Positions 44,362-52,700 of a stretch of DNA of 64,000 nt are shown piece by piece. A program made the position numbers and the translations under genes. The stretch is from Octopus vulgaris (lineage: Eukaryota). Within the stretch, counting starts at the first letter, position 1. Every line of letters begins with the position of its first letter. Location: contig OX597814.1 of NCBI GenBank assembly GCA_951406725.2, positions 153,512,001-153,576,000 on the forward strand, in the 5' to 3' direction. The notes below the pieces were generated by a model. That model made no database searches and was not told the DNA's origin. It saw nothing but the letters and a program-made list of their open reading frames with translations.

Positions 44362-44747
44362 CATCATTATCATCATCATCGTTTAACGTCCGTTTTCCGC
44401 GCTAGCACAGGTTGGACTGTTCGACCGGAGTCTGGGAAGCCAGGGGCTGCACCAGGCTCCAGTCTGATCTGGCAGAGTTTCTACAGCTGGATTCCCTTCC
44501 TAACGCCAACCACTCTGCGAGTGTAGTGGGTGCTTTTTACGTGCCACCTGCACAAGTACCAGGGGAGTCCGGCATCGGCCACGATTGATTGGTGCTTTTA
44601 ATGTGCCACCGGCACAGAAGCCAGCCAAGGCGGCGCTGGCATCAGTCACGTTCGGATGGTGCTTTTTATGTGCCACCTGCACTGGAGCCAGTCGAGGCAG
44701 CGCTAGCTTCGGCCACGTTCGGATGGTGCTTTTTATGTGCCACCAGC

Positions 44748-44800
<53 letters not shown>

Positions 44801-44806
<6 letters not shown>

Positions 44807-45615
44807 ATATTTCGGAATGATCATTTTGCCATTTTAGCCAATAAAAACACATGCACTATATATTTGATGTTACTTTGCTTCAGTGTTATTTATTTTTTAC
44901 ATTAATCTTAATCTTATTGTCTGACAAATTACAGAAGCTACACACATAATAGAAAATAAACCTAGCATGAATAGAAAACTAGAATGGAACACTAGCACAC
45001 ACCACAACATATGACGGTAGAGGATCCCGAAAACATAATAAATACACAGATAAATAAACAAATAGAAATAAATAACTATATTATTATTTTTTTTCCGATT
45101 TATTATTATTATTACTAGTATTGTTGTTATACATACATACATACATACAAGCATATGTAATGATAATAATAAGTGGATGTAAACACATGAACAAAATAAG
45201 AATAAACAAAAACAACAACAAAAACAAATTACATGAACGTATATAAACAGAAGATACAAATATTACAGGCATCCCCCCCACACACTAAATAAACATAGAC
45301 GCACATAGAGATATAAGCATGCGCAAATGAAGACATACAATAGAAATACAAAATGGCTGACGGTTAGTAAGGAGAGACACAAATAAGAAAGAAGAAAACA
45401 AAAGACCACTGATGTGGTCACAGGAGTGTGACGAAAGAACTCTGGCCGAAATAAGATTAAGATTAATGTAAAAAATAAATAACACTGAAGCAAAGTAACA
45501 CCAAATATATAGTGCGTGTGTTTTTATTGGCTAAACTGGCAAAATGACCATTCCGAAATATAACAATATCTGTTTCAACACACGACTTCACATAAAAAAT
45601 CTTGCACAACAAATA
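44801..45615 (+). mobile_element. Fold-back Penelope-like pseudo-LTR element between (TA)n tracts
   Basis: 44801-44918 is the reverse complement of 45450-45568; HHR motif just upstream of the right arm. Confidence 0.75.
45404..45447 (+). ncRNA. Minimal type I hammerhead ribozyme, slightly degenerate
   Basis: GACCA | CUGAUGU | G GUCAC-AGGAGU-GUGAC | GAAA | GAAC | UC | UGGCC. Confidence 0.75.
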
Positions 45616-45999
45616 TATAAACGTATATATATATTTATTTATACAATGGGCTTCTTTCAGTTTCTGTCTACCAAATCCACTCACAAGGCTTTGGTCAGCC
45701 CAAGGCAATAATAAAAGATACTTGCCCGAGGTGCCACACTATGGGACTGAACCTAGAACCATGTGATTAGGAAGCAAGCTTCTTACCACACAGCCACACT
45801 GTGCCTATATCGCTTCTTACCACACTGCCATACTGTGCCTATATATACATGTGTGTATGTGTATGAGAAAAGAATGGAATTTACATAATTACCTTCATTA
45901 AGTTACAGACAGACACACATTTTTTATTTTGAGCATTTTGAATAAGTTGTATGTGTGTCTGCCTCTCTGCATGAATGACAAATGATGTGGTTTTTTCTC

Positions 46000-46951
46000 C
46001 CTTAATTACTGACAAGTAGGCTCCAGCAGCCACAATCAGCCAGCTGTCATGCGGTACACTCCATCATCCAATGAATGAGAAGGGCGCGTAATTTTGACAA
46101 TAAGTGTCCCGGAGGTGAAATTTTTTCCCCACAAGAGTTCCAGACCCCAGTAATGAACTCATTTACATACAGCCAATCGGAGCTCACCTTGAAAATCTAC
46201 ATACTGTGTACTAGTACAGCCAGTCAGGCATAGAATGGTGTATGTCTCTCTGTGAGTACAGCATAGCAGGTCTCACATAAGCACCACATCCCCCACCATT
46301 GTCATAGATCAATGAGCACCATCTCTATATGGAGCTAACGTTAGGTACCTATTCTCAGACTGACATTAGTGATACTGCATGTACCCATTGATATAAACAA
46401 GGAGGGTACAATACAACACAATGCCATATCGATTACGATGTTTCCAGATCAACACCAACATTTTAAATTAGGAATGTACAAAATCAGTCAAAAAATTTGG
46501 AAACTACACTCATTTACATTTTCTAGTAAATTACACAAATTGGCAACACTTATGGCATCATAGGTGAGCAGCTCTCCATTCACTTTATACGCTAAATTTC
46601 ACATTTGTCACCCATATTAACCCGTTTAGAACAGTTAGATTTTGCTATAATGTAAATTTTCCACTGAACTCAACCAGAGTATTTTCTTGACTAGGTGGGC
46701 ACTAGTTTGAAAGTTGAGCTCTGATTGGCTGTATGCAAATGAATTCAAAACTGGGGTCTGGAACTCTCATGAGTAAAAAAATTTTGCATCCTGGAGCCTA
46801 CTTTTTCGTTTGAATGATAGTGTTATGTTGTAGGCTCCAGCAACCACCACCAGCTACTACATATTTATTGATCTATTTTTGGAAGATGGAGTGTACTACA
46901 TGATAACTGGCTGGCTGTGGCTGCTGGAGCCTACCTGTCAGTAGTTAAGAG
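46000..46951. mobile_element. Non-autonomous DNA transposon with long diverged TIRs (about 200 bp)
   Basis: cttaattactgacaagtaggctccagcagccac...gagttccagaccccag...cagccaatcggagctca mirrored at 46705-46951; TTAA at both ends. Confidence 0.75.
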
Positions 46952-47598
46952 TGAAAAAATAAAGAACACTTCTTTTGGTCACTGCCGCTTGTTGACACTT
47001 TAGGAAGAAGCAGCATCAATTGGATTCATTAAGTGAGAGTTTGGATTTATTAAATGAGTGATTTTATGGTTAAAAATTCCGTCCCAACCCATTTTGGATA
47101 CATTAAGCAGGTGCATTTATTATCAGCGGATTTATAAAGCAGGATCTACTGTATTTGAAAAAATAAGTAGAGATGGCTTTTTTGAGGGATAAGTTTTATT
47201 TTAATCTTAATAATAATGTTTACAGTGAGTTGCTCTGATATGAATTTCAAGCTTCAAGTAGCTGCTTTCAAACTGAAAAATGTATGTTTTACATGTAGAA
47301 GAAGAAGAAGAAGAAGAAGAGTAAAAACCATATATGAAATAAAGAAAAAATAAACACAAATATATAAATAAAAATAAAAATAAGAATAAAGATAAGACTA
47401 TTAGTAATTGAGAACAATGGAGGAGGAAAGTTAAATCCATCAAGAATAAAGAAATGGAATATTTTGGAGTGGTCAATATTGTTGTGTTCTTGTCAAAAGA
47501 TGATCTGTGTGGTGCCTATTGATTTGAGGTCACCCATTCAGTTCTTACAGGTGGTATGGAGTACATATATATATATATACACACACACACATATACAT

Positions 47599-47636
<38 letters not shown>

Positions 47637-47828
47637 CGTTATTAAATCTCAGAACGAGATGTAAACAGTAAGCCATCTTAATATGGCTAACCACAAAGGG
47701 GGGGGTGGTGTTACTGTAGCTTTTTAGCCCCAGGAGATCATCGTCTCCAGGTGGCTTTAGACACACTTTCTGTGCCCTTAAAGTATTTGCAAAGGGAGGC
47801 CATCCCTTTCTCGTAAGCCTGAGTGATA

Positions 47829-47874
47829 CGCACCGGACCAGTTTCGAGATTATTGTCTCTTATCAACGGGCGGT
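47829..47874 (-). ncRNA. Minimal hammerhead ribozyme, U3-A8 core, copy 1
   Basis: Minus strand GCCCG | UUGAUAA | GAGA-CAAUAA-UCUC | GAAA | CUGG | UC | CGGUGC. Confidence 0.75.
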
Positions 47875-48187
47875 AATCACCAGGTCACGATGAAAGACAA
47901 GGCCTGTTTGCAAAATATATAAGAGTTTTTCTAGTGACGTCTGCCACTGATTTCGAAAAACTGACTGTAAGCATTATTAAATCTCAGAACGATATGTAAA
48001 CAGTAACCGCTCGACAATGTAAAATATAAAAGCCATCTTAATATGGCTAACCACAAAGGGAGGGGGGGTTACTGTAGCTTTTTAGTCCCAGGAGATCATC
48101 ATCTCCAGCTGGCTTTAGACACACGTTCTGTGCCCTTAAAGTATTTGCAAAGGGAGGTCATCCCTTTCTCGTAAGCCTGAGTGATAC

Positions 48188-48230
48188 GCACCGGACCGGT
48201 TTCGAGATTATTGTCTCTTATCAATGGGTG
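48188..48230 (-). ncRNA. Minimal hammerhead ribozyme, U3-A8 core, copy 2
   Basis: Minus strand CACCCA | UUGAUAA | GAGA-CAAUAA-UCUC | GAAA | CCGG palindrome | UC | CGGUG. Confidence 0.75.
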
Positions 48231-48429
48231 GTAATTACCAGGTCACGATGAATTCTCTTTATTATAGGCACAATGGCCCGAATTAAGAGGGGACATTACA
48301 ATACAGGACATGGGGTACATATAATAAAAAAATCGAAAAGTATGGTATGACAATGAATTATTTATAATGAATTAATGAAATGTCTTACGGGTTCCCCAAG
48401 CTCACAGTTTCATTTAAATTACCATTGTG

Positions 48430-49785
48430 TTATTCGGGGCGTTCATCTGTTATGTATTCGAGTACATCCTCCTGCTCTATAATCCCTGGCAAACTCTCGT
48501 ACCGCACGTATTGCATTATGCATATACATGTATACACCTTGCTCAGTTTCATCACTGTCTCTCTTTCCACAATCGCCGCCTTCACCTTGTCATCAAACAT
48601 TTTCGAATTTAATTTTACTCTGGTTAAACTTTTTATGTTTGCCAACTTCTTCTCAATTTCCTTGTCCTTCTTGTACAACATTACCACTTTCAGATTTTTT
48701 TCTTTTGGTCTACTTCCTTCCCTACATACTCTCAGCCAATCTTCCACTTTACTTTCCCATTTTTTCTCCTCCTGCCGCCTTGAAACTTCACTCGCTTTCG
48801 TTTCAGTATCTTCCTCTTCGTGCGTTCGAACCTCTATCTTGTCGGTAGTCTTCTTTTTGTTTTTTTCTTTTTTTTTTGTTGTACTTTAGGTGGTGATTCC
48901 ACCCGCATTCTCTTTCTATCTTCTTTTCCTTCTGTTCTTTCCTTTTGTTCCTCCTTCACCAACTTGTCACCACTTTCCACATTATCTATATTCACACTTT
49001 CTTCTTCTACATTCGCCATTTGCAATTCCTCTGTCAGAGCCTCCAATGTTATCATCTCCTCTTGTACTTTTTTTTGCGGACACACATCCTTCATGTGGCC
49101 TCTAATCTTACATGTGTAGCACACTGGGGGTCTCCCCTCTACCACGACTCTGAGTCGTGTCTCGTCGGGGAACACCAACTCTTCTGGGCTGTTATACATG
49201 TCTGGCATGGTTATGTGTACCAAAGCCTGTACTGCATAACCCCACCACTTTACTTCCTTCGACCTTTCTATCTTCAATATCTCGACATTCTCCTTGCAGT
49301 TAAATATTTTTGCTGCTATAATTCTCTCCATTTTCAATTCTGGTGAAATTTTGCTGATTCTTATTCTCACCGCTCGTCTTCCACAATAGCTTGGTAGTAG
49401 TATCCATTTTTAATTTTTCAATATTTTCGTAGCGTTCCTCTTTGCTTCAGCTTAGTTCTCAAAATGAACTACCACCGTCGCATACTTTCTACCTCTATTA
49501 TAGAAGGTAGCTTTTTCTTCAATCTCCTGCAAACACCTTGATTTCCTCCACCTCTGCCACTTCTATTTTCTTTGAAGCCATGCTTCACGTTCTATATGTC
49601 ACAATACGCCTCTCTGCCTCCTTCACCTTGTCTTCTGGTAGTGTGACTCTCAGGGAGTCACCCTCCTTCTTGAAACTGTTGAAGTATTCCTTCAGGCTCT
49701 CCTTCTCGACGACCACTTCCTCCAACTGCAGCTCGCTTGCAGCCAGACCCTTGCCTGCTGCTCCTGCATAAGTTTAGGTTTGCAT
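48430..49785 (-). pseudogene. Disrupted ORF1/gag-like nucleic-acid-binding protein with CCHC zinc knuckle (L1/Tx1-type)
   Basis: MQT*TYAGAA N-terminus; RLRVVVEGRPPV-CYTCKIRGHMKDVC (CX2CX4HX4C); E/K-rich C-terminal part; stops and frameshifts; no RT or endonuclease. Confidence 0.8.
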
Positions 49786-52700
49786 ATTCGAAAAAAAACT
49801 CCCACAATTCACCACGCCGCAGCAGCTTCCACCAACAAACTCAAACTCACAACCGTGATACACAATAAACGTAATCCAAAATATCCGACACAAACAAAAA
49901 AACCACCAGGTCACGATGAAAGACAAGGCCTGTTTGCAAAATATATAAGAGTTTTTCTAGTGACGTCTGCCACTGATTTCGAAAAACTGACTGTAAGCAT
50001 TATTAAATCTCAGAACAAGATGTAAACAGTAACCGCTCGACAATGTAAAGTATAAAAGCCATCTTAATATGACTAACCACAAAGGGGGGAGGGTATTACT
50101 GTAGCTTTTTAGCTAAAAAAAAAGCTACAGTAACACCCCCTCCCCACAGACTGCATATTTTCAATGCTTTCACAAATGGCATAGTCTTATGAAAACTCTT
50201 CCCATAATGGTTACTCAGTCTCCTAATTTGGCTTGTTAAATTTTGTGGAATTTTTTTTGTCAACATGTCTCAGTATATATATTATGGAATAACTTCAGTG
50301 TGCTTAGTGCAGTGACCAAAACAGGTAACTAAATAAAGAGGAATTCAATAAGTGATTAAGTGATCCAAACAAGTTTGGACAAAAGATGATAATGATGATG
50401 ATGATGATGAAGTAAATAAATACAAAATAAGAAAATAGTATATGATTAAAGTATGAATGTTGAGTTGAATGATAGTTAAATAAAGAAAATAGTTGAATAA
50501 ATATGAAAAAATTAGAGATGTTACATGAACAAACTATAAGGAGTTGTAAGTAATCAAATGATATTATTGGTAGAGTCTTTGTGACTTGGATTTAAATTAT
50601 GGGATGAATTTCATTTTATCTTTGGATAGAATTATGAGTTTATTGTAGAAGTAAGATTTACACAAGAAAATCTTTTTGTTATATTCATTTAATAGGCAAT
50701 CTGCAACAAATAGAATAGCTATAATTTCTTAAAACATAAATTGCAAGCTCTCTTATTTTGGGTATCGGATTCGATTCTATGCCAAAAATCAATTGCATTT
50801 GAGTGTAGTTTGTAGTGTTCTTTAGCTCCTAAGTAAATGTAATTTTGAGAGTGATGTTTCCTTTTCTTTGTTTAAGTTTCTGAATGTATGAGTGTGGTTG
50901 TGAAGTATAGTTTAAAAGGTGTAGAGGTGAAACGTGTGTGTGTATGTGTGTGCATGTGTGTCTGTGTGTGTGTGTGTGTGTGTAATAATGAGATAAAAAA
51001 ACAAAATTCACAACATGTCAAAGAATCTATACATACATGCACATATATTGAAAGAGAGGGTAGAGAGAGAGAGAGAGGTGAGGCAGGAAGGAGAGAGATA
51101 CACATGCACATGTAGACACACACACATACACACATGTGCATGTGCACACTGATATAAAGGAGTCAACCTGATTATGTGGCTGGTACATTTTATACATACA
51201 TTTGTGTATGTGCACATGCACACAAACCTCTCCACCACCACATAAATATCTATGTTTACTATCAGTAGAGGATATACAATTTCTTCAGTAAATAACATAT
51301 GTATTTAATAATTTCACATAGGAAATAATGTGACTCTGCAAATATTTCTTGGCTGCTCTCTTTTCATACCAGAATGAAATGTCAAGTTAACAATTATTCA
51401 AAACTCCTGGCATGCTCAAATGAATGTTCAACTTTTATTTCCTCTATACTGCTGCCAACTGATGAAAAAAAAAAATACTTTGTTTCATATAAGCCTGATA
51501 AAATCTGCTTATATTAATGTTGAGTTAATTGTGAAACAATTTTTATTTTAGACTTTGATGTGAGATAACATTCCGGGAGTGTGGAAATATGAAATTATTC
51601 TACCTGTGTATCAGCAAACAGTTCTTTATTGCATATTATTTTCATTTTAACCAGCACCCCCTTCCTCCCTCTCTCTCTGAAAATTTAAAAAAATAAAAGA
51701 AAAACTATTATCTTCAGGAAAAAAAGAGATTCTTTAAAAAGAACTCTTTGAAATTGTGTTTCAAAAAGAACTGCAATATTCATTTTAAAGATACAAAGTG
51801 ATACTGAAAAGATGGCCATATCCTGTTCAGACATCTCATTACATAGCTAAAAATCATCTAACAATTGGATATTTTTTCTTCTTACAAATAAAACTGCCAT
51901 TATTTTTTCAGTCTTTAGTTCAGTTTTGGGTTGTGTCCTCCACATTACCTTATTTACAACAACTGATGCTGTTTATTCTTCTGAGTTTACTAACCATTCC
52001 ATTATTATTATGTTTCTACTATTATAACTGTTTGTGAAGGCATGTTGCTTGGTTGTTAGGGTGTCACACTCATGATTGCAAGATTGTGGTTTTGGTTCCC
52101 AGAAAAGGTGAAGCATTGTGTTCTTGAGCAAAAGAACCCCCCCCCATTTTATTTCATGTTGCTCCAGTCCACTCAACTGTAGACAAGTAACCCTGCAATG
52201 GACTGGCATCATATCCAGGGGGAATGTTGTGATCTCGGTCACTTAGACAACATGGAAACCAGATAACTGGTCCTATCAGTCCTAGGACTTGAGATAGATC
52301 TTACTTAGTTTGCAGTCCTTTTTGCTTCATTTGTGTTATAATCCTGATGAACTCAAACAGGTTATGAGTTTTAACTTACCACTATCACAATCATCAGTGT
52401 TGGTTATAACATCATCATCCTTTATTGTCTGTTTTCTATGTTGGTATGGATTTATGTAGATTATCACAGTATGATTCAGTTCCCATTCAGAAAAACAGCC
52501 CTTCAAGATGGTTTGAAGAACATCTCATTCATGTGCTACTTTTGGCTTGGACTTTTTTTATGACTGGAAGTCCTTCCTAACAATAACAATTTTACAGAGT
52601 GTATTGGATGTATTTATCATGGCACCAGCACAAGAGAAGTTGTCATGTCCTTAACAAAACTAGAATATCCTCTCCACTCCAAGTGGACAACCACTTGTTG

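Follow-up and report, generated by a model that had tools for sequence, protein, structure and literature searches.

An ORF1-only LINE family of Octopus vulgaris found at one position upstream of hammerhead ribozymes in retrozyme-like repeats

How did a segment coding only for a zinc-knuckle protein come to interrupt an array of hammerhead ribozyme repeats, with a short duplication on either side? The question is raised by a 64,000-nucleotide stretch of the Octopus vulgaris genome (assembly GCA_951406725.2, contig OX597814.1, forward-strand positions 153,512,001 to 153,576,000), which we call the window and to which all coordinates below refer. The original prediction, made from these letters, left two answers standing: a site-specific hyperparasite of the array, or a composite mobile unit in which the ribozyme repeats carry an RNA-packaging protein and reverse transcriptase (RT) is supplied in trans. 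Our analysis favors the first. The segment appears to belong to an old family of long interspersed nuclear elements (LINEs) that encode only the first open reading frame (ORF1), face forward at one fixed position upstream of the hammerheads, are likely mobilized in trans by an L1/Tx1-type LINE and are likely aimed at RNA polymerase II (Pol II) start sites. We give this reading a probability of about 0.7.

We examined the insert itself by counting its flanking 16-mer. This sequence occurs exactly three times in the window (starting at 47879, 48237 and 49905) and not once on the opposite strand. The copies at 48237 and 49905 bracket a 1652-bp insert on the minus strand (48253-49904), and the one at 47879 (47879-47894) marks the same site, empty, in an uninterrupted repeat unit; the predicted 16-bp duplication around a segment of ~1.65 kb, with an intact site in the first repeat copy, was thus borne out. 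Read on the minus strand, the 5′ copy of the duplication (49905-49920) would hold a transcription start near 49917, predicted by analogy with U2 +1, and with the 3′ copy (48237-48252) begins the 5′ arm of hammerhead stem I. A G/T run opens the insert, which continues into a single broken open reading frame with a CCHC knuckle, and closes with AATAAAG plus a 4-nt tail lacking poly(A) (48253-48263), an ending common to an autonomous partner described below. It has the orientation of the ribozymes, and its AATAAAG (48263-48257) lies ~34 nt upstream of the core of the second hammerhead, in agreement with the placement originally described. The ORF1 remnant (48430-49785, minus strand; ATG at 49785, stop at 48430) encodes two domains resembling the RNA recognition motif (RRM), a CX2CX4HX4C knuckle (~49121-49080; Pfam zf-CCHC, E = 0.0095, under the curated cut-off), a charged linker and a C-terminal alpha/beta domain. 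That the insert encodes only a CCHC ORF1 and ends in AATAAA held, with the correction that the ORF1 is a dead remnant: it carries four in-frame stops (codons 4, ~67, 112 and 126) and two frame changes, near amino acid 82 and at amino acids 300-315. The window insert is a dead copy of a large, old, ORF1-only non-autonomous LINE family.

The interrupted repeat is a tandem unit of ~358 bp. Its downstream part spans 47637-48252 and the array resumes beyond the insert as a truncated unit (49905-50113) followed by a 27-nt inverted piece (50119-50145), both on the minus strand. Each full unit holds a predicted minimal type I hammerhead on that strand, with a U3-A8 core variant, a 4-bp stem II and a 2-bp stem III: copy 1 at 47818-47886 (core 47866-47860, predicted cut after 47836) and copy 2 at 48176-48244 (core 48224-48218, predicted cut after 48194). 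The uninterrupted copy gave a folding z of -2.9. Since an Rfam scan of the window listed no hammerhead at E ≤ 1, the ribozyme call rests on motif and fold. Short non-coding tandem units with a type I hammerhead in each, as seen here, are one mark of a non-LTR retrozyme, self-cleavage and circular RNA being others, and the repeat fits published non-LTR retrozymes (PMC7229834; bioRxiv 10.64898/2026.07.22.740005), whose accessible text describes the same ~360-bp tandem units, type I hammerhead in each unit, absence of an ORF and Penelope-like tandem/inverted layout; we call it retrozyme-like. No LINE insertion into retrozymes is described in the accessible parts of these accounts. The window-type repeat is abundant (3258 first-look candidates), with partial-tandem plus inverted, Penelope-like layouts, and the insert family hits at least three families of hammerhead repeats (A, B and C) and further variants. 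RNA contigs of runs X7, X8, X9 and X1 match both repeat and insert families at ≥90%, although such contigs cannot show where transcripts start.

We asked how widespread the insert is and where its copies lie. Searching the same 2.8-Gb genome with the insert DNA gave 53 matches (40 of 325 candidates scored), and an intact 449-amino-acid copy used as query gave at least 137 scored matches, many with open frames of 440-490 amino acids. Among 193 ORF1 matches (loci L001-L120), 110 have a recognized 3′ end 1.35-1.9 kb past the ORF1 start; the remainder comprise 45 without a recognized end, 22 truncated or at an edge and 16 duplicates. No Tx1-type RT frame of ≥180 amino acids was found directly after ORF1 in the loci checked. 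The 110 ended copies fall into two 3′-end types, H (66 copies, the window copy included) and S (44, mostly in head-to-tail stacks).

The ORF1-only element is site-specific and inserts INDEPENDENTLY. A pattern search placed a hammerhead core 19-39 nt after AATAAAG in 47 of the 66 clade-H copies, the distance varying with subfamily. Inspection by eye added 3 whose core is mutated and 10 that are stacked at this site, so that 60/66 occupy the retrozyme site and 6 lie elsewhere. Duplications measure 10-24 bp (duplication score ≥10 in 51/66) and their sequence follows the local target. At 22 family-B sites, representing 12 sequence variants, the two members of a duplication pair agreed over 9 nt at 13, compared with 7.6% across loci; none of 20000 permutations was as low. 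On a tree of the 66 copies, target class must change 15 times (minimum 3, shuffled mean 24.5), which indicates both fidelity and switching; two labels in this tree were wrong by eye (L056 is family C, L076_3993 family B) and were kept as computed. This tabulation of flanks, a check proposed at the outset, thus returned site specificity and not a shared history or shared outer breakpoints of insert and repeat. The site-specific hyperparasite is supported in this form; specificity as such stood, while its restriction to a 16-mer in one array proved too narrow, the targets including several repeat families, the U2 +1 position and TATA promoters.

ORF1 is under purifying selection (median dN/dS, the ratio of nonsynonymous to synonymous rates, 0.12 in 132 of 171 pairs from 19 copies), as the suggested comparison among copies could reveal. 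A structure model of the protein (mean predicted local distance difference test score, 73.6) comprises two beta/alpha domains, the knuckle, a linker that is disordered and a C-terminal domain modeled with confidence; a fold search with it matched tandem-RRM structures (best E = 9e-5), and the leading Atlas clusters were CCHC and ZCCHC3-type (0.90-0.93). A single-sequence protein search retained 0 of 7998 candidates at E ≤ 0.001, and a profile search retained 1554 proteins at that threshold, in part via the knuckle alone. Pfam offered nothing beyond the sub-threshold zf-CCHC, and a search of PDB sequences found knuckles only, with no L1 ORF1p match. Ten relatives were looked up, and all eight named ones come from O. 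vulgaris, O. bimaculoides, O. sinensis or Argonauta. In a fast tree, whose method warns of long-branch joins, the ORF1s of ORF1-only copies form one clade separate from 14 autonomous ORF1s; one entry, L119_4603, is actually an autonomous ORF1, and the tree was kept as computed. Residues 334-449 of P0001 (window ~48430-48790, minus strand) form a confidently modeled alpha/beta domain, conserved in the ORF1-only lineage and unalignable to helper ORF1s; the fold matches listed are all RRM-type proteins.

We looked for full-length relatives with RT, as had been proposed. RT frames directly upstream of two copies led to a young LINE of 5.3-5.5 kb with an ORF1 and an ORF2 of 1134-1148 amino acids, which shares the tail and the sites. 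ORF2 carries APE, RT and zf-RVT domains, and its nearest solved structure is human L1 ORF2p (E = 7e-63). Thirty ORF2 loci were examined: the end falls directly before a hammerhead at 20 and on the first U2 bases at 4, a further 4 are stacked on the hammerhead site, 1 lies elsewhere and 1 has no end. At least nine junctions join this LINE and ORF1-only copies directly, in both orders, and the ORF1-only copies L078/L051 have an entire tail and duplication identical with those of the autonomous copies L141/L174. Two ORFs, the APE and RT domains, a C-terminal zinc motif and target specificity with long duplications are Tx1-type features; we label it L1/Tx1-type only, as no named Tx1 reference stood among the 120 matches listed. 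This LINE is the likely trans helper of the ORF1-only family, and RT supply in trans, as originally foreseen, would then come most likely from a LINE and not from a Penelope element. Two ORF1-only copies, L006 and L007, have a helper-like 5′ end, possibly through a 5′ swap. An idea that the newest copy always sits at the 5′ end of stacks was dropped, both orders being seen.

We compared the targets of further helper copies. A further 80 helper loci, 73 with a recognized end, were pooled with ORF1-only copies into 104 non-tandem sites in 28 target clusters. In 12.0 of the 28 clusters a TATAWA starts 20-38 nt upstream of the duplication, where control windows at the same loci lead one to expect 1.2. 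Leaving out the hammerhead clusters gives 10.8/23 against 0.9, and a relaxed motif gives 20.1 against 5.5; in 200000 simulations none was as high for any of the three counts. The doubtful duplication calls of L198, L091 and L104 were counted as misses. TATAAA lies on the sense strand in 11 clusters and on the antisense strand in 2. At U2, the complete gene starts 3 nt inside the duplication, placing the junction at -3/+1. The window site has a TATA-like element (49940-49947, minus strand) 27 nt upstream of the duplication, with a counterpart in copy 1 (47921-47914). A second motif, at -68 to -50, is common to the U2 target and four hammerhead clusters (17/21, 25/30, 6/7 and 1/1) and missing from that interval in the remaining hammerhead cluster, the fifth, as well as in each of the 22 others; in the window it corresponds to an element near -57 (49970-49978, minus strand) that may be akin to the proximal sequence element of small nuclear RNA (snRNA) genes. 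It was defined after looking, and fits an snRNA-type promoter in the hammerhead repeats. One TATA target lies upstream of a same-strand exon encoding 12 C2H2 fingers, which in L324 follows 1.9 kb downstream, with donor and acceptor motifs in between. Within a region of contig C27 (L264/L324, L194, L255, L257, L260, L268 and L269), helper copies occur repeatedly at a related TATA site. Because hits fall in several repeat families, at U2 +1 and on TATA promoters, the shared target feature is probably the predicted transcription start, and the ribozyme probably a bystander 19-39 nt downstream of it.

Leader relics and RNA INTERMEDIATE are represented by donor-type leaders and A>G copies. In the U2-inserted L171/L172, the copy's own duplication is followed by the start of a retrozyme-A site, whose first base is the equivalent of U2 +1; leaders of a similar donor type occur in L014, L096 and L173, and one subfamily retains in its 5′ duplication a donor variant missing from the local target. 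Such relics of earlier targets are expected if the RNA begins in the 5′ duplication, and support promoter borrowing. Dense sense-strand A>G changes, depleted after a 5′ G as in ADAR editing, mark at least three of the 110 copies (L101, 168 of 176 differences; L108, 167/177; L111, 129/183), with milder cases in L114, L072 and L016, and point to an RNA intermediate. L101 and L108 have 71 of 139 changed sites in common, where 37 would be expected if changes were uniform, reflecting hot spots or a partly shared history.

These results suggest the following scheme. The element would have no promoter of its own; the target's promoter would fire inside the 5′ duplication, so that the RNA would run from a target leader of ~12-17 nt to the AATAAAG end. 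The element's own ORF1p would coat this RNA, and helper ORF2p would nick the start site and then reverse-transcribe. The copied leader would pair with a matching new target, giving family fidelity, and would remain as a relic if unmatched. Repeated use of one site would build the mixed head-to-tail stacks, and the hammerhead downstream would do no more than trim read-through RNA. The start site might be recognized by contact with the initiation complex, as open DNA or through a loose endonuclease preference.

Several points weigh against our reading. The helper assignment is circumstantial, because BLAST detected no significant DNA similarity between insert and helper, the common 3′ end consists of the AATAAAG tail and two short motifs recognized by eye, and ORF1 identity between ORF1-only copies and the sampled helpers is only 21-26%. 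Sampling favored the best-scoring copies (137 of 13487 first-look candidates for ORF1 and 135 of 21760 for the helper). The test of the TATA pattern came after the pattern had been noticed; 16 of the 28 clusters lack a strict TATAWA in the tested range; and some clusters are related (L260/L264/L275; L196/L108/L096), so that the true independent number is lower. Many non-hammerhead targets may be promoters of other transposons: the L274 site is followed 1.9 kb downstream by the ORF2 of a different LINE, and the L207 target, taken at one point for a coding first exon, was dropped because it is another ORF1 element. Agreement between the helper RT tree and target class would also be expected from a sequence-reading endonuclease. 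Finally, insert and flank identity are equal in several family-B pairs (e.g., L003/L005 at 96.9/96.5/96.8%), which may leave some co-mobilization open.

A stronger version of the favored scheme, which we regard as tentative and somewhat doubtful, holds that the LINE lineage docks on Pol II initiation sites of any promoter class, whether snRNA-type (retrozyme and U2) or TATA (including the C2H2 gene), and inserts on +1. The captured 5′ leader would be a switchable guide, and the ORF1-only satellite would keep ORF1p and its extra C-terminal domain to steer or hijack the machinery. If so, a half-LINE would live on a LINE that lives on a retrozyme promoter, a three-level chain of parasites, and the system could possibly serve as a start-site-directed gene writer.

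Classical Tx1-type sequence specificity, in which each subfamily's endonuclease and the pairing of read-through flanks between RNA and DNA choose the site, and the start-site match merely reflects descent from a U2 or retrozyme target, is the most serious competing explanation, and we consider it unlikely. Target choice of Tx1 is attributed to its endonuclease in the accessible text of PMC4494074. Target class follows the helper RT tree closely (6 changes over 73 rows, minimum 4, shuffled 28); an ATCG core is common to the U2 +1 and retrozyme-A sites, and copies whose RT segment is identical (L171/L173) hit them. Against this, one young clade of 39 helper copies with non-hammerhead targets has inserted into many unrelated sequences that have the TATA spacing in common, and it is nested among the retrozyme-A targeters at only a few percent RT divergence.

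The composite unit fares worse. It would require that RNAs running from hammerhead to hammerhead be excised with ORF1 inside, possibly circularized, and re-inserted by a Penelope-type RT. Same-strand hammerheads do stand on both sides of the insert at some loci (L015, L017 and L019), the flanks have Penelope-like partial tandems and inversions, and the family-B pairs of equal identity agree with it. Yet the window copy has no upstream hammerhead, and its clade spans family A and B sites: its closest copies (95-97% identity) occupy A variants and B, with flanks matching the window's for only 15-197 nt at 78-93%. Near-identical inserts in different repeat families argue against a traveling ribozyme-ORF1 composite, as do the 15 target changes; moreover, duplications match the local target, and the same tail and site are used by the autonomous LINE, which also inserts at U2, where there is no hammerhead. 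We therefore hold this second option of the original prediction to be quite improbable. An initial reading of the hammerhead repeats as Penelope pseudo-long terminal repeats (pLTRs) was also dropped, no link having emerged in 30 + 12 Penelope loci: none of the units A, B and C stood in pLTR position in 12 long and 30 shorter loci, from families related to one query.

Recognition of the hammerhead fold itself, as RNA structure or as a DNA hairpin of stem I, could account for the 3′ junctions, which in all repeat families fall at the beginning of the stem I 5′ arm or close to it, but the distance to the core is not constant among subfamilies, and U2 +1 and TATA sites are hit without any hammerhead, making it very improbable. 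Chance nesting or a one-off deletion product of an ordinary LINE, however abundant the target repeat, is refuted by the fixed position of 60/66 copies, the ORF1 matches (at least 137 scored, many of them with intact frames), the purifying selection and the separate ORF1 clade.

Each ingredient of this system has a precedent, in HAL1, Tx1-Mar and TRE5-A.2. HAL1, HeT-A and Ag-Sponge are non-autonomous LINEs that retain ORF1 (PMC5753468, PMC5786205) and, as far as the accessible text goes, resemble the octopus family in encoding ORF1p only, in their LINE-type ends and, as is likely for the octopus family, in reliance on a partner's ORF2. Encoding ORF1p only and moving as a unit via RNA with target-site duplications, the octopus family probably belongs to this HAL1-like class. 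A further mark of the class is origin by internal deletion from the autonomous partner, with 5′ and 3′ ends in common; here the tail and short 3′ motifs agree by eye, BLAST similarity is not significant and the ORF1s stand in a separate clade. It differs in being site-specific at predicted starts, in an ORF1 so distant from that of its helper and equipped with its own C-terminal domain, and in belonging to an invertebrate L1/Tx1-type setting; nor is it HAL1 proper, as its ORF1 is of the CCHC/tandem-RRM type, matches no L1 ORF1p in the PDB search and has octopod named relatives. The closest functional parallel is Dictyostelium TRE5-A.1/TRE5-A.2, an APE-type LINE with a trans-moved ORF1-only derivative, positioned relative to transcription starts. 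According to the accessible text of PMC5391098, TRE5-A inserts ~47 bp upstream of Pol III genes, carries a promoter module of its own and shows contact between ORF1 and TBP in vitro; the octopus family, by contrast, lies on predicted Pol II starts, faces forward and apparently uses the target's promoter. Transposon-targeting Tx1 families (Tx1L in Tx1D, Tx1-Mar, Tx1-9_AMi and Tx1-8_Crp; PMC4494074, accessible text) share with it a target-specific APE LINE nested in a mobile element, tandem stacking around the duplication and non-autonomous riders (SINEU), whereas in octopus the LINE targets hammerhead repeats, U2 +1 and TATA promoters, unrelated in sequence, and the rider codes for ORF1. The accessible text of a repeat study of O. 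vulgaris (PMC13282606) reports 13 recently active L1-Tx1 families and contains none of the words 'promoter', 'TSS' or 'nested'. Literature searches, judged by titles and abstract openings, disclosed no LINE targeting hammerhead repeats or Pol II starts in cephalopods; Repbase reports, subscription papers and supplements may describe such families. Keno inserts at a conserved internal site of U2, ~37 nt inside the gene, and U2 is a minority target of the octopus helper (4/30), whose junction at -3/+1 sets it apart from Keno proper. Both are APE LINEs inserting in U2 snRNA genes (PMC4494074, PMC4640811, accessible text). The octopus insertions would mark likely promoters or start sites of octopus retrozymes, which are unmapped in the accessible retrozyme literature. 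Host genes could be silenced where an element lands on their start, as at the C2H2 zinc-finger gene.

The usual account of target-specific LINEs is an endonuclease with a fixed recognition sequence. In this system a single lineage enters unrelated sequences whose common property is a position, the predicted +1, with relic leaders recording earlier targets. Two questions thereby become testable: how targets are switched, and why ORF1-only elements keep a protein that could be borrowed.

Some further observations concern the surroundings of the array and more distant families. Loci L311-L319 represent a very young Penelope-like family with a 1312-amino-acid ORF (RT, with a GIY-YIG-like region at the C terminus) and tandem/inverted pLTRs, in which a pattern search found no hammerhead. 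Window positions 44799-45640 resemble, by eye, the 3′ end of this family and include a 120-bp inverted piece (44799-44918/45450-45569). Nested 80-bp inverted repeats, like those of miniature inverted-repeat transposable elements, and a 67-bp tandem repeat occupy 45991-46959 and 44529-44771. On the other side, the right flank (50146-50599) is represented in a 1013-nt RNA contig of runs X7 and X9 whose first 200-360 letters are off the array; this hints weakly that those samples lack the array at this locus. At L061-L070, L100, L112, L129, L132-L134 and L137, two or three ORF1-only families (55-60% and ~35% identical to P0001) form long head-to-tail stacks, some of which end in an autonomous LINE with the stack's own 3′-end type. 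L323 holds a stack of yet another ORF1-only-like family, more distant and again with a CCHC knuckle.

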